Source of the DNA: a virus
Reading direction: 5' to 3' (one strand)
DNA: 23,133 nt
Virus genome (UHGV): UHGV-1818811
The position numbers and the translations under genes were made by a program. Shown piece by piece: positions 534-23,133 of this stretch. Numbering within the stretch: position 1 is the stretch's first letter; every line of letters begins with the position of its first letter. Under the pieces are notes generated by a model. The model had not been told where the DNA came from. It saw only the letters and a list, made by a program, of their open reading frames with translations, and made no database searches.

Positions 534-3287
534 ATGAACTGGATTGGTTCTCGGTGGTGGAAATTCGACTTCCATAATCACACTCCGGCATCGGACGATT
601 ATGGAAAAGGCCCTAATCAGGCCCAGTATATGCAGATCACTCATAAAGATTGGCTGCTCAACTACATGCGACAAGGCATCGATTGTGTCGCTGTCACGGA
701 CCATAATTCAGGCGCTTGGATTGATCCGCTCAAGCAGGCACTCAAGGAACTGGCATCTGAGAGTCATGAAGATTATCGACCACTCTACTTATTCCCAGGT
801 GTTGAGCTTACTGTTCAGGGGAATATCCATATTCTGGCCATTTTCGGCGAAGACAAGACAACCTCTGATATCGACTCACTGCTTGGTGCGGTCAGGTATC
901 GCGGCACCAAAGGAAAGAGCGACGGCTGCTCTGAATGCTCAGCAGTTGAGGTGATCGACGAAATTGCTAGGTCAGGAGGACTTGCAATACCTGCTCATGT
1001 AGATCAGGCTAGCGGACTTTTTACGGTCTGTACGGGCAACACACTAGAGCAGGTGCTTGACAACAAATGTGTTTTTGCTATGGAAGTAACGGACCTTGCT
1101 AAAGCAAAACCGCAGCTCTATATTGGCAAGAATTTGAATTGGGCAGCGATTCTTGGAACCGATTCCCATCATCCGTCCGGTACCGGAAATCAACGCTACC
1201 CGGGTAGCCATTTCACTTGGGTAAAAATGTCGGAGCCATCTTATGACGGATTACGGCTGGCGCTCGTTGATGGGGCTCTTTCACTGAAGCGGTCGGACAA
1301 CTTCACTGGTGACCCAAATATCCATGGACAACTTGCCATCGAAAGTATCGTGGTTGATGATGCGAAGTACTTAGGACGAGGGCAATCTTTAACTTGTCAA
1401 CTGAACCCCTGGCTCAACACTATCATTGGTGGACGAGGCACTGGGAAATCGACTTCGTTGGAATTCCTGCGGATTGCTCTTAAACGAAAGGGAGAAATCC
1501 CCAAGAGCCTTGAAAAGGAATTTACCAAATACAGTCAAACTTCGAAAGACCGCCAAGATGAAGGGCTGTTAAAAGATTCCACGAAAATAACTGTAGGCTT
1601 TCGAAAAGACGGTGGCCGTTTCCGAATCACCTGGTCTAATACCGACGACATATACAGCATCGAGGAAGAGACCGCTCCCGGAGTCTGGTGTGCTTCCGAG
1701 GGAGACATAGCACAACGATTTCCTGTCAGGATTTACAGCCAGAAACAGATATTCGAATTGGCAAAGCATCCCCAAGCACTCTTGCAGGTTGTCGATGATG
1801 CCCCGGAGGTCAATCATCGTGATTGGCAGCTTAAGTGGGATGAACTGGTTTCCAAATATCTCTCGCTTCGCGCCCAAGAGCGTGAAGTTCAGGCTGGGCT
1901 TCAGGAAGAATCGGTAACCAAAGGTCAGCTTGAAGACGTCAAACGCAAACTCGATGTTTTTGAAAAGGCGGGCCACGCGGATGTCCTTAAGGCTTACCAA
2001 CTCAGACAGAACCAGAGTAAAGCTATGGACTACTGGGTAACGACTTGGGAGGATTCCGCCGAACAGGTCCGAGATATTTCTGGAAGCCTACTGCCAGCAG
2101 AATTGGATTTACAATATTTCGACATTGGGAATGCGGATGACAAAGAACTCTTCGATACCATCAAGGACATCCGTGCGACGTTTGAGAAGCTTCAGACAGA
2201 GATGAACTCGATCGCGCAGCGGATTGATGATGTGAAGAACTCATGGAATCAAACTCGATCAGACTTGGGAATATCGAAAAGAATTACAGCGGCGAGCCAT
2301 GAATACAACGCCCTCCTCGGTCAACTCAGCGCAGCAGACGCAGGTGATCCATCTGCATATGGTGTTCTGGTTAAGCAGCGACAAGATTTCGAAGATAAGC
2401 TCAAGGGATTCGACAAAAAGAGAGAAACTCTTGCGCAGCATCAGAAGAGCGCGGAAGAATACTTGGTCAAACTCCATGAGCATCGAGCATTGATAACCAA
2501 ACTTCGTGAGGACTTTCTCAAGGATACTCTCGTCGGCAATTCATATGTACAGATCAATGTCATTCCGTTTGGAAACAAGATTACGGTTGAGGAAGAATTC
2601 CGTAACCTGATCGGCCGCAGTGGTGGCGGATTTGACCGCGACATTGGAGTTGTTGACGGGGATGAGGGCTTGCTGGCTTATTTAACGCAAGACCAATCCA
2701 ATACTATGGATGATAAAATTGAGAAAATAAAATCATCGCTACTTGCAATCCATGAAAACGATACTATGGCGGTGGAATCCTGCAAAGATCGACGTTTTGT
2801 ATCCCTCATTCAGGGGCTAACTCCGGAACAGATAGATCGAATTCAGTGCTGGTTTCCAGGCGATTCTCTGGATATCAGATATAGCCTCAAGAACGGCGAG
2901 AGTTTCAAACCCGTAGAGCAAGGATCTCCGGGGCAAAAAACGGCGGCTCTCCTTGCATTTATCCTTTCATATGGCAATGAGCCTCTTATACTTGATCAGC
3001 CTGAGGATGATCTTGATAACCACTTAATCTATGATCTTATCGTGACGCAATTGCGTGAGATCAAACAAAAACGGCAGGTTTTAGTAGTCACGCACAACGC
3101 TAACATCGTCGTGAATGGTGACGCGGAAAACGTCATTGCCCTTGATATTCGGTCTGGTCAAACCAGAATTGTGGCGCAAGGGGGTCTTCAAGAACCTTCC
3201 ATACGCGATGAGATATGCCGAGTGATGGAAGGTGGCAAAGAGGCCTTTACCCAAAGATATAAACGAATCAATGCAGCAATCAAATAG
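534..3287 (+). CDS. 917-aa fusion of an N-terminal PHP-family phosphoesterase domain with an SMC/Rad50-like ABC ATPase (Walker A, long coiled-coil insert, signature-like motif, Walker B, H-loop); candidate single-gene anti-phage protein with Ppl-like architecture
   Basis: PHP metal-binding motifs in the first ~210 aa: FHNHT, VTDHN, GVEL, HILA, PAHVD, TDSHH. Walker A IIGGRGTGKST (~aa 300). About 450 aa of predicted coiled coil. C-terminal SPGQKTAALLA (signature-like), LILDQPEDDLD (Walker B/D-loop), VVTHNANI (H-loop). No adjacent SbcD-like partner. GC visibly lower than the phage structural genes. Confidence 0.9.
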   Translation: MNWIGSRWWKFDFHNHTPASDDYGKGPNQAQYMQITHKDWLLNYMRQGIDCVAVTDHNSGAWIDPLKQALKELASESHEDYRPLYLFPGVELTVQGNIHILAIFGEDKTTSDIDSLLGAVRYRGTKGKSDGCSECSAVEVIDEIARSGGLAIPAHVDQASGLFTVCTGNTLEQVLDNKCVFAMEVTDLAKAKPQLYIGKNLNWAAILGTDSHHPSGTGNQRYPGSHFTWVKMSEPSYDGLRLALVDGALSLKRSDNFTGDPNIHGQLAIESIVVDDAKYLGRGQSLTCQLNPWLNTIIGGRGTGKSTSLEFLRIALKRKGEIPKSLEKEFTKYSQTSKDRQDEGLLKDSTKITVGFRKDGGRFRITWSNTDDIYSIEEETAPGVWCASEGDIAQRFPVRIYSQKQIFELAKHPQALLQVVDDAPEVNHRDWQLKWDELVSKYLSLRAQEREVQAGLQEESVTKGQLEDVKRKLDVFEKAGHADVLKAYQLRQNQSKAMDYWVTTWEDSAEQVRDISGSLLPAELDLQYFDIGNADDKELFDTIKDIRATFEKLQTEMNSIAQRIDDVKNSWNQTRSDLGISKRITAASHEYNALLGQLSAADAGDPSAYGVLVKQRQDFEDKLKGFDKKRETLAQHQKSAEEYLVKLHEHRALITKLREDFLKDTLVGNSYVQINVIPFGNKITVEEEFRNLIGRSGGGFDRDIGVVDGDEGLLAYLTQDQSNTMDDKIEKIKSSLLAIHENDTMAVESCKDRRFVSLIQGLTPEQIDRIQCWFPGDSLDIRYSLKNGESFKPVEQGSPGQKTAALLAFILSYGNEPLILDQPEDDLDNHLIYDLIVTQLREIKQKRQVLVVTHNANIVVNGDAENVIALDIRSGQTRIVAQGGLQEPSIRDEICRVMEGGKEAFTQRYKRINAAIK

Positions 3288-3847: not shown

Positions 3848-4384
3848 ATGTTAATAATTATACTAAAAAAAAGGAACATGGAATTTATGTTAAATTTAGA
3901 CGAAATGTGCAGCGCATTAAGAAAACAATACTCTATAACGGCTGGTCAAGATGGTGAGAAATATGCTAGTAGATGGCTGGAAAAATCCAAGTGGAAATTT
4001 GAACATGTTGAGCAAGGAATAAATACCTTATCTGCAAACTTGAAATCATATGGGGGGAAACGCCCCGATTTCATTATTGACGCTGACGAATCCTCTTATA
4101 TTCTTTTAGATGCGAAGTATCACTCAACAGATGGGTGTACCTCCTTTACACTTACTGATTGTGAAATAGGAAAGTATAGAGCACTTCAGCAATTCTTAAA
4201 AAATGTGTATAGTGATTGTACTTTCGAAGTAGTCTTTATGGTGTTTCCGAAAGAAAAAAATGGTGACGAATTTACATTTGTGAGTCTAGATGAGTTTGAT
4301 AAAGGAGAGTGTACGACTCTAGCATCAAAAGATGCAACGAAAATTAGTCTACTCTATCGAGATGACTTATGGTTTAAAAGTTGA
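3848..4384 (+). CDS. Small PD-(D/E)xK-fold nuclease-like protein (NERD / restriction-endonuclease-like core) in an AT-rich islet; family unassigned
   Basis: Motifs AGQDGE (GxxGE), GKRPDFIID (PD) and ILLDAKY (DxK) in canonical order and spacing. Islet ~3780-4520 is strongly AT-rich relative to flanking phage DNA. Start uncertain: ATG at 3848, 3878 or 3887; AAGGAA at 3871-3876 best serves the 3887 ATG. Confidence 0.8.
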   Translation: MLIIILKKRNMEFMLNLDEMCSALRKQYSITAGQDGEKYASRWLEKSKWKFEHVEQGINTLSANLKSYGGKRPDFIIDADESSYILLDAKYHSTDGCTSFTLTDCEIGKYRALQQFLKNVYSDCTFEVVFMVFPKEKNGDEFTFVSLDEFDKGECTTLASKDATKISLLYRDDLWFKS

Positions 4385-4730: not shown

Positions 4731-5281
4731 ATAACCCTGGCTGGAAACCTCTTATACAAAGTTGACACACCAACATCATAGATAATAGCCACCTTCTGGC
4801 GAGGAACGCCTGATGCAATTAATCGCCCGGCCTGCGCCCATTGTTCTGGTGTAAGTTTGGGACGACGTCCACCAATTCGTCCCTGTGCGCGAGCAGCTTC
4901 CAGTCCAGCTTTTGTTCGTTCAACAATCAGTTCTCGTTCCATTTCAGCCAGGGCACCCATCACATGAAAGAAAAAACGCCCCATCGGTGTGCTGGGATCA
5001 ATAGCATCCGTCAGGCTGCGAAAATTAACGCCACGTTCGCGCAACTCCTCAACCAGAATGACCAGATGCCGCATACTACGCCCCAGCCGATCCAGCTTCC
5101 AGACAACCAGAGTGTCACCTGTCGATAATGTCCTGAGCAGTTTTTTCAGTCCCGGCCTTTCGGACTTTGTACCGCTTACCTTGTCTTCAAAAATCAGCTC
5201 GCATCCTGCACAGTTCAGCGCATTACGTTGTAGATCTGTGTTCTGGTCATTTGTTGATACGCGTACATAGCCAATAAGCAT
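4727..5281 (-). CDS. pin: Serine DNA invertase of the Gin/Pin/Cin/Hin family (184 aa from the internal Met of the 196-aa ORF)
   Basis: MLIGYVRVSTNDQNTDLQRNAL... with catalytic Ser in YVRVST, ...LVVWKLDRLGRSM..., GRFFFHVMGALAEMERELI, C-terminal helix-turn-helix GRIGGRRPKL...; near-identical in pattern to Gin/Pin as I recall them. Sits next to an invertible tail-fibre segment. The symbol is generic for the family. Confidence 0.95.
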   Translation of the reverse strand: MLIGYVRVSTNDQNTDLQRNALNCAGCELIFEDKVSGTKSERPGLKKLLRTLSTGDTLVVWKLDRLGRSMRHLVILVEELRERGVNFRSLTDAIDPSTPMGRFFFHVMGALAEMERELIVERTKAGLEAARAQGRIGGRRPKLTPEQWAQAGRLIASGVPRQKVAIIYDVGVSTLYKRFPARVI

Positions 5282-5335
5282 GGTAGATCCCCCTGACAAA
5301 AGCAGGAATGATGCCATTTGCTCGTTATTTCTGCA

Positions 5336-5361
5336 TTTTCATAAACGTTGGTTTGAGAGAA
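5336..5361. repeat. Inversion crossover site (gix/pix-like), left boundary of the invertible segment
   Basis: TTTTCATAAACG TT GGTTTGAGAGAA has the AAAC..GGTTT dyad typical of Gin-family sites. It is an inverted copy of 7181-7206 (19/26 identical; segment-proximal arm 13/14). Confidence 0.6.
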
Positions 5362-5982
5362 GGTTCATTTGGGTTCAGAAATCTGGTTACCTTCACAACG
5401 GCTGGAGTAACAAGCTGGACTGTTCCTGAAGAGTTGCGCAAAGGAAGAAAATGTTACGTCAAAGTTATTGGTGGCGGTGCGTCAGGAGGGATAGGTTCAA
5501 CAACCGCTTCAGCCGTTACATGTGGCGGAGGGGGTGGTGGGGGCGGAGTTGCTGAGGGACTGGTAGATTTAACTGGTATAAACAGTGTTTCGATTACGGT
5601 TGGTGCCGGTGGTGCGCCTGTGTCTGGTATTTCTGTAAACGGTAAAAATGGTGGCTCGAGCAGTTTCGGGACTTACATGTCAGCTTCCGGAGGCTATAGC
5701 GGAGGCCAGCCTTCCGGAGGGTTAGGCGCAGTTGGTGTCGGGGGAACAATTAATACATCGCTTGGGCCAGGTTCTCCAGGTTCCATTGCTTCTGCCGCAT
5801 CGGGGGCTGGTAATGGTGGTTCTGGTGGTGGCCCCGGAGGAGCAGGTTCATTCAGAGATACAGCTAACGGAAAAGCGGTATCAGCAGTTGGGCCTGGAGG
5901 TGGCGGTGCTGGATTATGTCCTAATTCATCAACGGGTCAGTCGGGTGCCGGAGCAGATGGCGCAGTTTATATTTACTGGTGA
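5350..5982 (+). CDS. Silent alternative tail-fibre C-terminal cassette (Sv'-like, glycine-rich receptor-binding domain); no start codon of its own, expressed only after inversion
   Basis: The frame is open from the crossover site and begins GLREGS..., in phase with GLGEGS... at the equivalent point of the active tail-fibre gene. Sequence is Gly-rich (GGGASGGIGS...CGGGGGGGGV...). Opposite orientation to the tail operon. Confidence 0.65.
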   Translation, partial: GLREGSFGFRNLVTFTTAGVTSWTVPEELRKGRKCYVKVIGGGASGGIGSTTASAVTCGGGGGGGGVAEGLVDLTGINSVSITVGAGGAPVSGISVNGKNGGSSSFGTYMSASGGYSGGQPSGGLGAVGVGGTINTSLGPGSPGSIASAASGAGNGGSGGGPGGAGSFRDTANGKAVSAVGPGGGGAGLCPNSSTGQSGAGADGAVYIYW

Positions 5983-5989
5983 GGTTCAT

Positions 5990-6160
5990 ATGTGGGCAAG
6001 AATTGAAGAAAATAAAGTAGAAGAGATAACGGAAATTAATCCTGAAGGAAGATTCCATCCATCATTAATATGGAAAGAATGCCCTGCTGACACACAGCAG
6101 GGGGATTTATATATTGATGGTGAGTTTATTGCGCAGTCTCCGGCAGTTCAGGCCAGATAA
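5990..6160 (+). CDS. Small tail-fibre-assembly-like protein paired with the silent cassette (tfa'-like, 56 aa)
   Basis: ATG 5 nt after GAGG; starts 8 nt after the cassette stop. MWARIEENKVEEITEINPEGRFHPSLIWKECPADTQQGDLYIDGEF resembles the N-terminal region of Tfa/TAC proteins. Converges on and overlaps the 3' end of the active tfa. Short, so uncertain. Confidence 0.5.
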   Translation: MWARIEENKVEEITEINPEGRFHPSLIWKECPADTQQGDLYIDGEFIAQSPAVQAR

Positions 6161-6734
6161 CATCCGGCGCGGTGCTGGTATCTGTTGCCGTCACCGCGTC
6201 AATGTAATCCAGCACGGCGTTAAGTCGGGTTGTTTCTGCCTGCGTCAACTTCCGTCCGGCCTGTAATTTCAGCTGAATCAGACTAATGGAAGCCATTGCT
6301 GCATCAATCAGTGACTGGCGCTGTGCTTCTGCCGCGTCTACTGCGGCACTATGCTGTGCCTCAGTATCCGTCACCCATTTCTCACCATCCCATTTATCAT
6401 ATGGCGTTAACGGGGCGATAGTGGTTGTATTTTCAGGGTAATCACCCGGAGCTGTGATTTCTTTCGATTCTCCTGTTTCGGTGCTATAGATGATTTCACC
6501 GCGATGGTCTGGCACATATTCCCATGAGTTAAAATCTGCAGAACGGCAGATTGCATAACCAGCTTTATGTGTAACTGGTGCATCTAAACAAGAACATGCC
6601 GGGATACCGACGCCAACCGCAAGATATTCAGTTGATGTGGAAATATATTCCCGCGTTTCACCATCATAATTATAAATGGTAATGTCTCCCGCTTTTATGG
6701 CAATGAGTTCGTTATTTAATACGGCTTTATTCAT
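6126..6734 (-). CDS. Tail fibre assembly protein (Tfa)
   Basis: N-terminus [30 protein letters not shown]... and C-terminal ...TDTSTAPDVIWPELP are typical of Tfa chaperones. Start overlaps the stop of the upstream tail-fibre gene (ATGA). Confidence 0.85.
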   Translation of the reverse strand: MNKAVLNNELIAIKAGDITIYNYDGETREYISTSTEYLAVGVGIPACSCLDAPVTHKAGYAICRSADFNSWEYVPDHRGEIIYSTETGESKEITAPGDYPENTTTIAPLTPYDKWDGEKWVTDTEAQHSAAVDAAEAQRQSLIDAAMASISLIQLKLQAGRKLTQAETTRLNAVLDYIDAVTATDTSTAPDVIWPELPETAQ

Positions 6735-7411
6735 CAGGCAGCTCTCACGATATAATTAAAGGCAATGTTACGAGGTCGGTTTTCGTTTGCAGTTGGAACA
6801 ACTCTGGAAGCATCGAATGTTACTCGCTTTGCATAACCACCTTTAATTGAATCAGATGAAGCATCTCCGATGACGCTGGTTGTAAAAACGCCAGAATCAG
6901 AAGGGTAGATATTAAACCTGACATCCACTAATGCACCAATTATATTTCGAATGGCATCTCCCTGTGACGAAAGCAAGCTACGGTTAGTATCTATTCCTCT
7001 TCCGTCATCCCAGCCACGAATGAACTCACCACGTAAATCAGGCAATTTATTTGTCGGGTAAGCCTTTGCCAGTTCCGGGTATTCTTCAGCAGAAAAAGCC
7101 GCACCGTTGCATTTCAGCCAGCCTGTTGGCGGAGTGGCTGAAGGCCACGGAACAGGCACACCAACCGGTAATGCAGAGCCTTCTCCCAAACCACGGTTTT
7201 CGAGAGCCGTTTTCACCGTGCCATCCGATTTGATATCACCAAACGGATTCTTGCGGCTTAACAGCAGAGCACGAAGCGCGGTAAGCAACTGGTCGTTTCG
7301 CCCCTTCTCCAGGCTGGCACCGGATGCCTCCACCACGCTGCAGAGTTCTTCCTGCAACATATCAAAGTAGTCATCATCCAGTGGCAGGTGTGCCAGTCTG
7401 GGGGTTACCAC
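6734..7411 (-). CDS. Tail fibre protein (short constant N-terminus of ~73 aa fused to the currently expressed variable C-terminal collar-type domain)
   Basis: Contains [34 protein letters not shown]...[18 protein letters not shown]..., a phage tail-collar / receptor-binding motif. Inversion site lies inside the ORF at codons ~69-77. Confidence 0.85.
7181..7206. repeat. Inversion crossover site inside the tail-fibre gene, right boundary of the invertible segment
   Basis: Minus-strand reading CTCTCGAAAACC GT GGTTTGGGAGAA; inverted repeat of 5336-5361. The central dinucleotide appears to differ between the two sites (GT vs TT). Confidence 0.6.
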
Positions 7412-7481
7412 GGGTAAAACCGTTCTTACCCGCGCCGAACTTATCCTTCTGCGCGGTTTTCGTGTCTATACGATGCATGGA

Positions 7482-8066
7482 TTACTCCGGATATTTAAAA
7501 ATTACGTAGGTATGCGACGGGCAGAGTTTGTTAAGCACACACTCGACAACGGTGTCGCCCCAGATACGCAGTGCGGAATCACAGGGATCGCCACATGTCA
7601 TCCAGGTGGTGTTGGTGGCGGCTGGCATGTTGACCTGCCAGTAATACCGCCATTCCGGCGCATTCACAGCGTCAGTGCAGGCTGATGAGCAGGTGAACGT
7701 GCTTTTGTCGTATCGCGTGATGGTAGCGTCTGGTCTGCCCAGGGCAGCAAGCTGTGCAAGGTAAAAATCCTCATTGATGCCGCCCGCCAGGTTAACCTTC
7801 GCATCCAGTCGTTGCTGACGCTGGCGAAGGGTCTGTGTCCCTGCGGGAATACATTCATCCGGCAGGCCGCACAGACGCTCCCAGCGGTTTATCAGTTCGG
7901 TGGTGGTGCGCGGATCCAGCTCCCGCATCAGGGCATCCGCACGCTGATGAACGCGGGTTAATGACGGTGCCGCACCGGCAATCGCCGGATCGCTGGCTGA
8001 CCACGCCGGACCGGGGGGCAACAGTGCAGACAACAGACGGATGTAATCATCGTTTGTCACGTCCAT
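7482..8066 (-). CDS. YmfQ-like (Mu gp48-like) tail/baseplate protein
   Basis: [22 protein letters not shown]... matches my recollection of the e14 YmfQ / Mu gp48 family. Position immediately upstream of the tail fibre and downstream of the J-like baseplate gene. Confidence 0.8.
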
Positions 8067-10075: not shown

Positions 10076-11154
10076 CAGAACGGGTCCTCCTGTACTCTGG
10101 CTTTTTTCTTTTTCCGCGCGCCGGGGGCTTCGGGTTCAGGCAGATAAGCATCAGGTGGGCCGACACGGATTTCCGTCAGGGTGCCGTTCTGGTCCTGAGT
10201 AAACGTGACTTCCGAGACAAGCAGTTCGGTATTGTCGAAACCACAGACCGGATCGAAGACAATCACCCGCTGGTTGGGCTGCCACAGCGTACCGTTACCC
10301 TGTCGCCAGCCCTGCACCACATAGGTGGTTTCATCCGTCCGCGCCGCCCGTTGTCGGGCTTCAAAGTCAGCACGCGCAATACAACCTGCCCCCGTGGCCT
10401 GCCCTGTCTGCCGGATATACATCGGACGGTAACGGGCAATAAATGCATCCTCTGTGCGGGCCCGCAGCGCGGTGGTGGTGGCCTCACCGAAATCATCGTC
10501 GTTTCCGGCACGCTGCCCCGCCACCTGGTAAACAGAAAACCGCTCCCGGATACTCTTCTCCGTATCACAGGAAAGGATGTTTTCCCCAAGTACCAGCGCG
10601 GTATGTGCCCGCGTTGAGCCAATACCGCCAATCACCAGCCTGCCGTGCGGGTCGTCGTAAGCCAGCGCCTGCTGCTGACCGAGTATTTTGTTGATTACCT
10701 CAATCACCGTTTCACCGTGATCAGGCTGAACATCAGGAATAACACCCGATGGCGCACCGCTGTTCACCACCTCAATGCCGAAAGGCGCAGCAAGCGCCTG
10801 CGCAATCTGCACCAGCGAGCGTCCGTTAAACTGTGTCGGTTCGGCTGCACAGTCAATCAGGTCAGCCGTCAGACTACGTCCGGCAATACCGGTGCTGACC
10901 GAACGGGCATCGTAACGAACGGGAGTCGCCTCCACCCAGCCGGTGATCACCAGCTCATCACCAATCAGCACTTCCACTTTTGAACCGTTTTTAATGCGCG
11001 GCTGAAGCGTGGTGATACCCTCATCTCCCGGCCACTGGCGAGTGATCTCCACACTGAAATCCCGCGCCAGCCGTTCAATACCGGCACCGATGCGCACCGA
11101 TGTCCAGCCATTCCACTCCCGGCCATTTACCCGTAGCGTGACATTGTCGTTCAT
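10075..11154 (-). CDS. Baseplate hub / late control D-like tail protein (Mu gp44/P-like)
   Basis: 359 aa; synteny directly downstream of the DNA-circulation gene; basic C-terminal tail ARKKKKARV. Confidence 0.8.
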   Translation of the reverse strand: MNDNVTLRVNGREWNGWTSVRIGAGIERLARDFSVEITRQWPGDEGITTLQPRIKNGSKVEVLIGDELVITGWVEATPVRYDARSVSTGIAGRSLTADLIDCAAEPTQFNGRSLVQIAQALAAPFGIEVVNSGAPSGVIPDVQPDHGETVIEVINKILGQQQALAYDDPHGRLVIGGIGSTRAHTALVLGENILSCDTEKSIRERFSVYQVAGQRAGNDDDFGEATTTALRARTEDAFIARYRPMYIRQTGQATGAGCIARADFEARQRAARTDETTYVVQGWRQGNGTLWQPNQRVIVFDPVCGFDNTELLVSEVTFTQDQNGTLTEIRVGPPDAYLPEPEAPGARKKKKARVQEDPF

Positions 11155-12589: not shown

Positions 12590-13036
12590 ATGAAGAAATT
12601 ATTAAAATGGATTTTATATATTTTCATCGGGTTGGTGATTATTGGATATTTTGCAGGCAATAACGATAAAGGCTCTAATTCTTCATACTCATCCGATACG
12701 GAAGCTGCGGCACCGCAAAAAGAAATCTACAACACTACTGCTCGACAGCTGTTTAAAGAGTATGAAGAAAATGAAGTCGCTACCGATGAACAGTTAAAAG
12801 GTAAATTAATCGCCGTTAGAGGTATCGTACAATCCATTGATAAGGACTTTACTGACTCTATAATTATTAAATTCAGAACTGAAAATGAATTCATGCCAGC
12901 AAGAATGGAGATGCAAGACTCTGAAAAATCAACAGCTGCTGCTCTTAAAAAAGGAGAACAAGTAACTGTTATTTGCGAAAAAATGTCCAGAATTGTCGGC
13001 TCCCCATCAGGCCGAAATTGCGTGTTCGCACAGTAA
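12590..13036 (+). CDS. Moron: 148-aa membrane-anchored protein (N-terminal TM/signal-anchor, ~115-aa extracytoplasmic domain, possibly an OB-fold / tRNA_anti-like family member); function unknown
   Basis: MKKLLKWILYIFIGLVIIGYFAG = hydrophobic N-terminal helix. AAGGTGA Shine-Dalgarno before the ATG. AT-rich, opposite strand to the flanking tail genes, own terminator immediately downstream. Confidence 0.8.
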   Translation: MKKLLKWILYIFIGLVIIGYFAGNNDKGSNSSYSSDTEAAAPQKEIYNTTARQLFKEYEENEVATDEQLKGKLIAVRGIVQSIDKDFTDSIIIKFRTENEFMPARMEMQDSEKSTAAALKKGEQVTVICEKMSRIVGSPSGRNCVFAQ

Positions 13037-21254: not shown

Positions 21255-22437
21255 CGGAGGGTTTCGTGGTCATGTTCATCGGGGTGAGATAGACATCACC
21301 ACCGGGACGCGGATTCATATCTTCCAGGTCGCGGCAGTCATTAGGAGAGTAAATTCCCCAGTTAATCCCGGTGGCGTAGGCTTCAAAACGGGACTTCATA
21401 TCCCCGCGCAGTAACGCCCCGGCGTTAAATTTGGCGTAATAAACGCCCTGCTTACTTTTTCGTACCAGTCCGGTGTTGATCCGCTGCTCAATGCGGGTCA
21501 GATACGGCACCAGTGAATAGTTGATAAATCCCAGCCCCAGCTCTTCGATATTGTTGAAGGTGGCGCGATCGGTGTTCTGCACCATGTGCAATGGCACCCG
21601 GAACAGACGACAGATTTCTTCAAGCTGAAACTTGCGGGTTTCCAGGAACTGGCTGTCCTCGGCGTTCAGCGCCATCGACTTCCAGTCCAGCCCCATCTCA
21701 AGGATCATCGGGCGGTGAGCATTGCCAAGCCCGGTGTGACGCTCCTCAAAATCTTTCTTCAGGCGCTCATAAGCCTGATCCGACAGCGTCTGCTCTGTAC
21801 GCAACACACCGGACGTCACCGCACCATTGCTGAACAGTCTGGCCCCGTGCTCTTCGGTCGCAGCTGCCAGCGATATTGCCTCGCGGGCATAGGCGATGGG
21901 ATTCAGCCCCACCAGTCCGTCCAGCGTCAGCGTGCGCACATGCCAGATATCTTCCTGGCTCAGTACATCCGTGGAGCCGTCCGGGAATGTGACCTGATAG
22001 ACCGGCTCCCAGCTACTGTTAAGCTTCGGTACCACACAACCGGGATCGACGGGCAGCAGTTCAGCCACTTCGCCAAATGCTTTCACTTTGTAGGCGTAAA
22101 AGTTGCCCCGCAGGCACAGACAGGTGACCACCAGCTCCCAGAACTCCTGCGGCGTCATATAGCCATTGGGATGCGTGGAGATCAGCTTATGCAGACGTTC
22201 GCCGGTGGCTCTCTGTTTCAGGCTGCCGTTCAGGTGATACAGATTGCAGGGCAACATCCCGACCGACTCTGCCAGCACCCTGACGCAGGAAAAAACCGCC
22301 GTCAGTCGCATGGCCCGCTGGCTGCTGATCTGCTTTCCGGTATAGGTGTCATACGACAACCCGATGGCATCCGCCAGCTCTGCTGGCGTGGTCACCGGTG
22401 CGTCACTTTTTCGTTGAAATAATCCCGAAAAGAACAC
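21196..22437 (-). CDS. Portal protein (HK97 family)
   Basis: 413 aa; position between terminase and protease; sequence character consistent with HK97-type portals. Confidence 0.9.
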   Translation of the reverse strand: MFFSGLFQRKSDAPVTTPAELADAIGLSYDTYTGKQISSQRAMRLTAVFSCVRVLAESVGMLPCNLYHLNGSLKQRATGERLHKLISTHPNGYMTPQEFWELVVTCLCLRGNFYAYKVKAFGEVAELLPVDPGCVVPKLNSSWEPVYQVTFPDGSTDVLSQEDIWHVRTLTLDGLVGLNPIAYAREAISLAAATEEHGARLFSNGAVTSGVLRTEQTLSDQAYERLKKDFEERHTGLGNAHRPMILEMGLDWKSMALNAEDSQFLETRKFQLEEICRLFRVPLHMVQNTDRATFNNIEELGLGFINYSLVPYLTRIEQRINTGLVRKSKQGVYYAKFNAGALLRGDMKSRFEAYATGINWGIYSPNDCRDLEDMNPRPGGDVYLTPMNMTTKPSDGSKAGKQKDNANADETTS

Positions 22438-22619
22438 TATTTACCTCCACCAACAGACAGCTGTGTACGGTCGAGATATCGCGCCACCAGCCACGACCAG
22501 AACAGGCACAACGCCCCGGCAACAACAAACCCCGCCGGGGGATAAATCAGCCAGGCACCATACGCCAGCAAAAGCGCCCCCAGCACGCCTACCAGAGGCG
22601 CGAGAATCAGCATGATCAT
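22437..22619 (-). CDS. Small two-helix membrane protein between terminase and portal
   Basis: 60 aa, two hydrophobic segments ([26 protein letters not shown]..., ...[17 protein letters not shown]); end abuts the portal start. Confidence 0.55.
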
Positions 22620-22630
22620 AATTACCTCAG

Positions 22631-23133
22631 TTAAAGCGAGCGGATCCCGTAGGACTCAATGTGGTCAGACAGCGTGTCTTCTTTCTCGTACAGCATGGCT
22701 CTGCCAACCGCCATAATCAGCGCAACTGCACCATCGATTTTGTTTTCCGCCTGCTCTTTGACGGGCTTCACCACATCATCGTTACCCGGAATGGTTTTGC
22801 CGACCACGTTGCCGATACACCAGGTCATGATGGGATTGCCATCATGATGAAAGCGCCCCGATTCAATTGCCGCTTCCAGCTCTTTCATCGGGTCGGACAT
22901 GTTGGTGTAGTTCTGAATGATAGTGATGGGGTTCAGGTCTTCATCAGCAAGGTCATGTGAGAGCCCGGTCGCTCCGAAAGGGTCGATGGGTGACTCACTG
23001 ACCGGGCTGATTTTGTTCGCCGCTTTGGCCTCTTCGAGGATGTAGCGATAATCCACCTCTGCACCATCGGTAACGGTCAGAACGCCCATTTCCACCCATT
23101 TCTGAAAGCGTTCGGCTGTCCGTCGATCTTCAT
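22631..23133 (-). CDS. Terminase large subunit, C-terminal (nuclease) part; gene continues beyond the window edge
   Basis: Frame is open to position 23133. C-terminal sequence ...[15 protein letters not shown]... is typical of TerL nuclease domains. The ORF-track start at 23095 is a GTG inside the real gene. Confidence 0.85.

Follow-up and report, generated by a model that had tools for sequence, protein, structure and literature searches.

The window analysed here, a 23,133-nucleotide stretch of DNA from the virus genome UHGV-1818811, holds a prophage whose head is HK97-like and whose contractile tail is Mu-like. One region of it carries an intact pin, a serine DNA invertase gene, next to a segment bounded by two 26-bp crossover sites, in which two tail-fibre C-termini, each with a downstream gene, lie on opposite strands (Table 1). 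The constant N-terminal part of the fibre lies beyond the distal site, adjoined by a baseplate gene that belongs to the context of the locus and sits outside the switch. The original prediction, made from the sequence alone, had described this arrangement as a host-range switch with an adjacent invertase, a fibre C-terminus plus tfa on one strand and an in-phase alternative C-terminus on the other. This architecture is borne out: the Resolvase and HTH_7 domains identify the invertase beside the segment, Pfam and PHROGs matches identify the minus-strand fibre C-terminus and its assembly gene, and a Gly_rich_2 domain marks the alternative C-terminus, which is in frame across its site.

Table 1. 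Features of the Pin/pix tail-fibre region in window coordinates.
Feature	Coordinates	Strand	Evidence and remarks
pin, serine DNA invertase, 184 aa	4727..5281	-	Pfam Resolvase 5.3e-51, HTH_7 1.5e-13
Putative Fis-dependent recombinational enhancer	5192..5263	-	nt 19-90 of pin
Pin-side crossover site (pixL type)	5336..5361	.	TTTTCATAAACG TT GGTTTGAGAGAA; core 5348-5349 TT (other strand AA)
Alternative glycine-rich fibre C-terminus, non-fibre slot	5362..5982	+	Pfam Gly_rich_2 2.3e-11; phrog_863
Small 56-aa ORF 3' of glycine-rich module	5990..6160	+	GAGG 5 nt before ATG
tfa, tail-fibre assembly protein for Collar-type C-terminus, 202 aa	6126..6734	-	Caudo_TAP 1.7e-32; phrog_105 1.9e-99
Collar-type variable fibre C-terminus	6734..7192	-	Pfam Collar 1.2e-15; phrog_523; now joined to constant part
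Fibre-side crossover site (pixR type)	7181..7206	.	TTCTCCCAAACC AC GGTTTTCGAGAG; core 7193-7194
Constant N-terminal fibre part (StfP-like)	7195..7478	-	alignment with 7 relatives; private 5-bp deletion ~7380/7381
YmfQ / Mu gp48-like baseplate gene	7482..8066	-	Pfam Phage_Mu_Gp48 9.4e-27; directly upstream of fibre gene

The Pin protein aligns end to end with K-12 PinE, Gin and Cin, is about 95% identical to PinE, and has Gin as its best PDB match (E 5.8e-93). Its N-terminus, MLIGYVRVS(9)T, contains the catalytic Ser9. A small serine recombinase and a pair of inverted 26-bp sites, both features of the Din family, are thus found together at this locus. One Pin residue, T96P (window position 4996), is a private substitution; Thr96 is kept in Gin and is equivalent to T99 of gamma-delta resolvase. 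The exact window protein occurs in two contigs only. The 72 nt of pin listed as a putative enhancer occupy the position at which the P1 cin enhancer is annotated, are 100% identical to their K-12 pinE equivalent and resemble cin, and they may act as a Fis-dependent enhancer here as well. The defence gene Ppl also lies next to pin.

The exact Tfa protein is present in 50 blocks from e14-like and P2-like prophages, in both orientations. On the opposite strand, the glycine-rich C-terminus is in phase across its site, GGT TTG codons line up in both sites, and the reading frame is kept across both crossover points. The constant N-terminus can be fused in frame to either C-terminus, as is characteristic of a tail-fibre switch. 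In its present position, the glycine-rich part also has an in-frame upstream ATG at 5308/5311, which gives an ORF of 223-224 aa. A promoter scan for independent expression of this pin-proximal ORF returned nothing that exceeds shuffle expectation at the relevant place. The small gene behind the glycine-rich module had been proposed to be an alternative assembly gene, tfa'. The ORF does exist, and its counterpart in relatives is called as a gene of 56 or 67 aa, but no family match is obtained in Pfam or PHROGs and the tfa' label is unproven; it is possible that the ORF encodes a cognate assembly factor.

A palindromic half-site scan of the 23-kb window finds exactly two Gin/Pin-type 26-bp sites. 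An IUPAC search that allows up to three mismatches (≤3) again recovers exactly two, against a chance expectation of 0.01 for the 23-kb window, and none of 100 shuffled sequences yields two or more matches under the same conditions. The sites are inverted relative to each other with a core-to-core distance of 1845 bp, and as inverted repeats they agree at 19/26 positions overall and at 11/12 positions of the inner arms. The predicted pair of inverted sites about 1.85 kb apart, with nearly identical inner arms, is therefore recovered in every particular. The pin-side site is the same as in relatives L001-L003 and L021-L030, and its inner-arm T/C variant is a common polymorphism.

The central dinucleotides of the two sites are TT and GT in the inverted-repeat reading, exactly as had been claimed, which corresponds to AA and AC on the other strand. 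It had also been suggested that this discrepancy might come from site boundaries misplaced by one base. To fix the register, we anchored it on the annotated Mu gix, P1 cix and K-12 e14 sites, which share one alignment with the pair described here; positions 13/14 of this 26-bp register coincide with the annotated P1 crossover points and with the Mu G-segment boundaries. An off-by-one register is ruled out, as the same 26-bp frame fits the P1 and Mu annotations and gives AA/AA cores in all relatives. Extra or cryptic partners for the AC core, such as a Min-like multiple inversion system would have, were also considered and rejected: the best other candidates, such as positions 10193-10218 with a GT core, reach 13/20, which is chance level.

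The mismatch is confined to a single lineage. About 30 relatives for which both sites are available have matched cores without exception. A 40-mer that carries the AC core is found in 0/5426 complete E. coli genomes, whereas its AA version is found in 1378. All eight GTDB matches and every genome_contigs match to the site have an AA core, and the AC 26-mer was not found in the viral (IMG/VR) or JGI metagenome collections. The AC-core site was found in two ENA assemblies only, which were reached by exact-protein look-ups. The change is A7194C on the fibre side, and it converts a fibre codon from CTT to CGT (Leu to Arg). As judged from these alignments, the core mismatch is a genuine, derived and private A-to-C change and no error of boundary placement. 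Partner sites of the Din family are expected to have identical central dinucleotides, and this pair has AA at 5348-5349 (other strand) and AC at 7193-7194. Because this departure comes from a derived private point mutation, the family ancestry of the switch is secure and its current function is doubtful.

A second private change affects the fibre itself. The 5-bp deletion in the constant N-terminal part, which is the sole indel in the 8.6-17 kb that were compared with sister prophages, reduces the start of the gene to a 34-aa stub (7374-7478), behind which a 208-aa ORF without the N-terminus starts at 7360. The stub peptide is present in two ENA contigs only. The original prediction had taken the Collar-type fibre to be expressed and had missed this frameshift; the intact fibre gene that a host-range switch includes is not present. 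Because the deletion frameshifts the constant N-terminus, a full-length fibre is impossible in either orientation, and because the lesion lies upstream of the switch, the switch of this prophage no longer controls a functional fibre.

Together with T96P, the core change and the deletion bring the private changes of the lineage in the switch system to three. A fourth candidate, G at 5401, was ruled out, as the exact 223-aa ORF is widespread. Overall, roughly 3-4 of about 9-10 private changes fall in the switch region, which makes up 14% of the compared sequence. The corresponding binomial P value is approximately 0.04 when four changes are counted (including 5401) and weaker with three, and the comparison is post hoc. 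We therefore rejected the idea that private mutations cluster significantly in the switch, the enrichment being only marginal, and chance is sufficient to account for it.

Sister prophages that carry the same cargo are 99.7-99.9% identical to the window and have AA/AA cores and intact fibres. One of them (L026) has the orientation of the window and another (L023) is flipped, and their inner half-sites are swapped exactly as a crossover at the core predicts. These sisters encode intact fusion proteins of 249 aa and 307 aa, the latter in the flipped L023, in which the glycine-rich part is joined to the constant N-terminus. The same cassette occurs in both orientations among P2-like prophages. 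Across complete E. coli genomes, the Collar-type junction is found in 574, including switches with a partner module that is not glycine-rich, and the glycine-rich junction in 27. Sisters diverged by less than 0.3% have AA/AA cores, intact fibres and both orientations, so the switch must have remained active up to the very recent past. The AC lineage is known in one orientation only from its two assemblies, both of which are consensus assemblies; the second agrees in its orientation and has both the core change and the deletion.

In the Hin, Gin and Cin systems, invertase dimers bound to two inverted 26-bp sites assemble with a Fis-bound enhancer into an invertasome. This complex cuts both sites at the central dinucleotide to leave 2-nt 3' overhangs, which are religated after a 180-degree rotation. 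Productive 180-degree strand exchange needs the same central dinucleotide in both partner sites. Normal inversion by Pin would thus supply the constant N-terminus with either the Collar-type C-terminus and Tfa or the glycine-rich C-terminus and the 56-aa ORF. With the fibre-side core changed from AA to AC, each recombinant joint would hold one mismatch (T:C or A:G), so that ligation in the inverted arrangement would be strongly disfavoured and the complex would have to go back to the parental one. Inversion would then effectively cease, or at least become much slower, with the Collar-type orientation retained, and T96P, at a conserved position of the invertase, may be an additional lesion with a putative effect.

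This expectation agrees with published work on Hin, in which altering a single core base pair of one hix site keeps the ends from being ligated in the inverted orientation (PMC4817059). The e14 P segment inverts in vivo, also in trans (PMC12529663, PMC4272514), and in the prophage switches of EC958 the two 26-bp crossover sites of a pair have matching central dinucleotides (PMC4134206). A locked switch, which the original prediction had raised as a possibility, is the reading best supported by the sequence comparisons, namely the private derived mismatch and the matched sisters in both orientations, together with the published Hin result (PMC4817059). That inversion is blocked is an inference, and so are the effects of the mutations and the sequence in which they arose. 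The locus is a P-segment-type Pin/pix tail-fibre switch in an e14-family E. coli prophage, and the switch has probably been inactivated recently and is decaying.

The core mismatch might instead only lower the inversion rate, with Pin or its paralogues from other prophages still inverting the segment occasionally and the mismatch being resolved afterwards by replication or mismatch repair ('localized conversion'). Such leakiness is plausible to the extent that the mismatch affects just one of the two core positions, and Cin is said to use quasi-sites with different cores at low frequency. Iida and Hiestand-Nauer (1986/87) reportedly found low-frequency recombination by Cin in vivo between sites whose cores are not identical, so that 'locked' may stand for a strong reduction in inversion and not for its complete absence. 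Invertases that act in trans are also known for the e14 P segment (PMC12529663) and for EC958 Phi4 (PMC4134206). However, strand bookkeeping suggests that inversion followed by replication would produce daughters with AA/AA or AC/AC sites, and the survival of AA/AC therefore speaks against any productive inversion after the mutation. Moreover, Hin fails to ligate over a one-base core mismatch in vitro (PMC4817059), and the orientation is the same in both assemblies. We regard a leaky switch as unlikely. We consider it very improbable that errors of sequencing or assembly gave rise to the core change and the 5-bp deletion and conceal an active element with AA/AA cores and an intact fibre, even though the source contig (ERZ773216 NODE_1548) has a k-mer coverage of only about 2.9 and the variants occur in none of the 5426 complete genomes, nor in the other collections searched. 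An assembly made by a different pipeline (a scaffold with an N-run, SAMEA2737764) is identical at all of these positions, although it could stem from the same reads or sample and its independence is uncertain. In addition, a 5-bp deletion in non-repetitive sequence is untypical of short-read error, and the same contig carries other private substitutions over 19 kb, as would be expected of a real diverged lineage.

Selection rather than decay might also have fixed the orientation, if the host gains from constitutive production of a fibre-derived fragment. The candidates would be the 208-aa Collar ORF or the 223-aa ORF of leader plus glycine-rich part, and the freezing mutations would then have been selected. 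There is precedent for a benefit to the host, since P-segment products defend the host in a cryptic prophage: in K-12 e14, StfE2, which is generated by inversion, blocks T2 adsorption (PMC12529663). Three private changes affect the switch system, and the Ppl defence gene lies beside pin, both of which would fit domestication. Nevertheless, the promoter scan found no convincing promoter upstream of the 208-aa or the 223-aa ORF, the clustering of mutations exceeds chance only marginally, and the remaining structural genes appear undamaged, in keeping with random decay of recent date. Fixation of the orientation by selection consequently appears extremely implausible. We also think it quite doubtful that this is a natural serine-invertase switch frozen by the one-nucleotide core change in which T96P and the frameshift may reflect selection for a silenced or fixed switch during domestication rather than drift.

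Among known systems, the switch is closest to the K-12 e14 P segment (pinE, pixL/pixR, stfP/tfaP versus stfE/tfaE). Both have, in the same order, ymfQ, a fibre N-terminus, a site, two opposed modules of C-terminus plus tfa, a second site and pin; their two 26-bp sites have the same outer arms, and their segments differ little in length (1845 bp in the window versus 1797 bp in K-12 e14; PMC12529663). They differ at the fibre-side core (AC versus AA in K-12 e14), in their cassettes (Collar-type and glycine-rich in the window, StfP and StfE types in K-12) and in the cargo beside pin (Ppl versus McrA). Unlike K-12 e14, the window prophage keeps its full structural module, and it has a frameshift in the fibre N-terminus.

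The Mu G segment (Gin/gix) and the P1 C segment (Cin/cix) belong to the same mechanism class, with the same 26-bp architecture and crossover at positions 13/14. All three loci share an adjoining invertase, an enhancer in its 5' end (putative in the window) and fibre and assembly genes of the S/U type. The cores are GA in Mu and AA in P1, each pair being matched, whereas the window pair is mismatched. The Mu (3 kb) and P1 (4.2 kb) segments are longer than that of the window, P1 has long inverted repeats beyond its sites, and inspection of the alignment indicates that Gin and Cin share a smaller proportion of identical residues with the window Pin than PinE does. The nearest experimental counterpart is the engineered hix-wt × hix-AT substrate of Hin (pRJ862), in which the second core position is changed from AA to AT, as it is from AA to AC in the window. 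With this pairing, the inverted orientation was reportedly not ligated and the outcome was limited to 360-degree events and knots (PMC4817059). The two cases differ in that pRJ862 is an engineered plasmid studied in vitro with Hin, whereas the window holds a natural chromosomal Pin allele known from sequence.

This rearrangement class is known and well studied, and the locus adds nothing new on its mechanism; what it offers is a minor, probably locking, natural mutation. In this allele, nature provides an equivalent of the engineered core-mismatch substrates on which the subunit-rotation model was established, and with a strain that carries it one could ask in vivo how strictly a one-base mismatch prevents inversion. 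If the switch is indeed frozen, the lasting AA/AC mismatch records that no productive inversion has taken place since the mutation, and the lineage has been caught soon after the event, with sisters at about 0.1-0.3% divergence still in both orientations. Such near-identical sisters show how fast switches vanish once prophage decay begins. Annotators should treat the 'expressed' fibre as a pseudogene, and should not take the orientation that the assembly shows for one state of a live host-range switch.

The 23-kb window carries exactly two Gin/Pin-type 26-bp crossover sites, as determined by a half-site scan and by an IUPAC search permitting up to three mismatches, for which 0.01 sites are expected by chance and two matches arose in 0 of 100 shuffles. 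These scans return the same coordinates as the original prediction and its 19/26 agreeing positions when the sites are aligned as inverted repeats. Within the segment, the arms match at 11/12 positions, and the cores (central dinucleotides) are 1845 bp apart.

Features of the invertible segment and its surroundings in the window
Feature	Coordinates	Strand	Details
Invertase adjoining segment	4727-5281	minus	184 aa, full length
Pin-side site	5336-5361		TTTTCATAAACG TT GGTTTGAGAGAA
Gly_rich_2 fibre C-terminus	5362-5982	plus	
ORF after Gly_rich_2 C-terminus	5990-6160	plus	56 aa, no family match
Caudo_TAP assembly gene (tfa), after Collar C-terminus	6126-6734	minus	
Collar-domain fibre C-terminus	6734-7192	minus	
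Fibre-side site	7181-7206		TTCTCCCAAACC AC GGTTTTCGAGAG
ymfQ (Mu gp48-like), complete Mu-like baseplate and tail, HK97-like head module			upstream of fibre gene

The proposal that this region is a tail-fibre switch is borne out by the sites, the adjoining invertase and the two in-frame fibre modules. Both sites have their GGT TTG codons in line, so reading frame is kept across them, and sister elements encode intact fusion proteins (Collar type, 249 aa; glycine-rich type, 307 aa). The invertase has the catalytic Ser9 and is roughly 95% identical to K-12 PinE, and 72 nt equivalent to the annotated P1 cin enhancer, a putative enhancer here, are identical to K-12 pinE. The system belongs to the Pin/pix P-segment family on four counts: gene order, identity of the invertase, sequence of the sites and conservation of the enhancer. 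The baseplate, tail and head modules upstream of the fibre gene are complete, which makes the element a full-length relative of e14, a cryptic prophage. An in-frame ATG (5308/5311) in the pin-site spacer also extends the glycine-rich C-terminus to a 223-224-aa ORF (5308-5982, plus strand), which is called as a gene in many genomes and is analogous to K-12 stfE. The pin-proximal ‘silent’ slot may not be fully silent.

The original prediction also held that the two cores apparently differ, with the reservation that the site boundaries might be off by a base. We anchored the register on annotated reference loci, namely the G segment of phage Mu (Gin/gix), phage P1 (Cin/cix) and the P segment of K-12 e14 (Pin/pix). 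The annotated P1 crossover points (between CCT and TGG, and between CCA and AGG) and the Mu G-segment boundaries place the crossover at positions 13/14 of one common 26-bp register, which the window sites share, and this refutes the concern about boundaries. Cores are matched within each reference pair (Mu GA/GA, P1 AA/AA and e14 AA/AA); in the same register, the pin-side site of the window has AA and its fibre-side site AC.

Matched cores are likewise found without exception among relatives with both sites, around 30 loci from P2-like and e14-like prophages that include both orientations. We searched 5426 complete E. coli genomes with a 40-mer that has the AC core at its centre, so that no megablast seed can avoid the core; none matched, and the AA version matched 1378. 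Furthermore, the AC 26-mer has no match in IMG/VR or JGI metagenomes, and GTDB matches to the N-N version of the site carry AA in 8/8 cases. Given the reference register, the matched cores of relatives and these searches, the predicted mismatch is real and, on comparative grounds, derived: A changed to C at window position 7194, which also replaces Leu with Arg in the fibre (codon CTT to CGT).

Look-ups of exact proteins found two matching assemblies. ENA contig ERZ773216 NODE_1548, with k-mer coverage of only 2.9, is identical to the window, and so is ERZ28659508 ZHAN15-1_SAMEA2737764 scaffold_2295 apart from an N-run in the scaffold. Both assemblies, which are possibly non-independent, have the AC core, the window's orientation and a 5-bp deletion in the fibre gene. 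Two sister prophages with the same cargo gene beside pin are 99.7-99.9% identical to the window, and both have AA/AA cores and an intact fibre. One (GCA_027555525.1) has the window's orientation, and the other (Logan ERR3905385) is flipped, with its polymorphic inner half-sites swapped as exchange at the core predicts. The opposite orientations and swapped half-sites of these near-identical AA/AA sisters therefore date a flip of the ancestral switch to the last 0.1-0.3% of sequence divergence. P2-like prophages also harbour this cassette, at 99.4% identity and with both orientations represented. A count over complete E. coli genomes gives 574 with the e14-type constant region fused to the Collar type (including switches with a non-glycine-rich partner) and 27 with it fused to the glycine-rich type. 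In E. coli LD22-1 (NZ_CP047876.1, 4790-5442), the Collar C-terminus and tfa N-terminus in the expressed slot are replaced by a second, diverged glycine-rich module (82.8% identical) and small ORF, such that both alternative modules are glycine-rich; the flanking genes are pseudogenes in the PGAP annotation. LD26-1, a sister strain, has the normal arrangement.

Hin, Gin and Cin cut both sites at the core to leave 2-nt 3′ overhangs, after which half of the tetramer rotates by 180 degrees and the strands are religated. Joining TT/AA to GT/AC cores would leave T:C and A:G mismatches in the recombinant joints, each of which would have one strand with a mismatched 3′-terminal base. An engineered hix substrate with AA changed to AT at one site, which is directly comparable with the window's AA/AC pair, is reported to prevent ligation in the inverted orientation, with only 360-degree events, giving knots, being recovered (PMC4817059). 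Given this effect of a one-site change, the best reading is that inversion in the window is blocked or strongly reduced. The earlier suggestion of a locked switch thus gains support from the derived, private AC core and the hix precedent. If a mismatched inversion did succeed, strand bookkeeping predicts that replication would yield daughters with matched cores, either AA/AA or AC/AC. Such daughters correspond to the ‘localized conversion’ reportedly described for Cin by Iida and Hiestand-Nauer. By the same bookkeeping, persistence of the AA/AC state speaks against any productive inversion after the AC mutation arose, and implies that the mutation arose in the present Collar-type orientation.

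Beyond what had been predicted, the fibre gene itself is broken. The 5-bp deletion lies in the gene's constant N-terminal part, at about 7380/7381; it is absent from both sisters and from more distant relatives and is the sole indel in 17 kb of alignment. As a result, the fibre is reduced to 34 aa, and a 208-aa ORF without the N-terminus comes after this stub. The stub peptide is found only in the two ENA contigs described above. The invertase carries a private T96P substitution (window 4996, pin codon 96), and the exact T96P Pin is present in the same two contigs only. This Thr is conserved in PinE, Gin and Cin, and its equivalent in gamma-delta resolvase is T99, immediately ahead of helix E; the altered invertase may be impaired. 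A G at 5401 was rejected as a fourth private switch change because it is a widespread polymorphism. Matched cores and an intact output gene, two functional properties, are lacking in the window. Since both failures stem from derived private mutations, ancestry in the Pin/pix family is not in doubt, and it is current function that is doubtful. Overall, the window holds a familiar kind of system that carries a minor natural mutation.

The e14 P segment inverts in culture (PMC4272514) and is inverted in trans by PinQ, PinR and PinE, and the inversion-derived StfE2 chimera, which has an anti-phage effect, is reported to be expressed and to block T2 adsorption (PMC12529663). That work leaves room for the speculative reading that selection fixed one orientation in a domesticated prophage, for which the sole support here would be the co-occurring lesions. 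There are about 9-10 private changes in roughly 19 kb, with 3-4 in the 2.75-kb pin-switch-fibre region, and a post hoc binomial estimate gives P of about 0.04 for clustering if four are counted, weakening with three. Random decay is sufficient to explain the private changes in the switch region. This count leaves out the portal/terminase region (21283-23081), where about 40 closely packed substitutions separate the window from its otherwise near-identical sisters, a pattern that indicates recent recombination (mosaicism) and not drift by point mutation.

Between the tape-measure and DNA-circularisation genes, a 148-aa ORF (12590-13036, plus) on the opposite strand has a Pfam tRNA_anti-like OB fold by precomputed annotation and no PADLOC match. 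It is common to both sisters, an unrelated 176-aa gene occupies the same spot in other relatives, and the position looks like a moron slot. Adjoining pin, a 917-aa protein (534-3287, plus) is a full-length PADLOC match to the anti-phage defence protein Ppl (E 6.5e-157), followed by a 178-aa protein (3848-4384, plus; phrog_28481). K-12 e14 carries McrA in this slot, whereas relatives carry Avs2, DUF262, an R-M system with a LEM-3-like GIY-YIG protein, RnlAB or a KAP NTPase. This slot, located where e14-family prophages end, behaves as a hotspot for defence genes.
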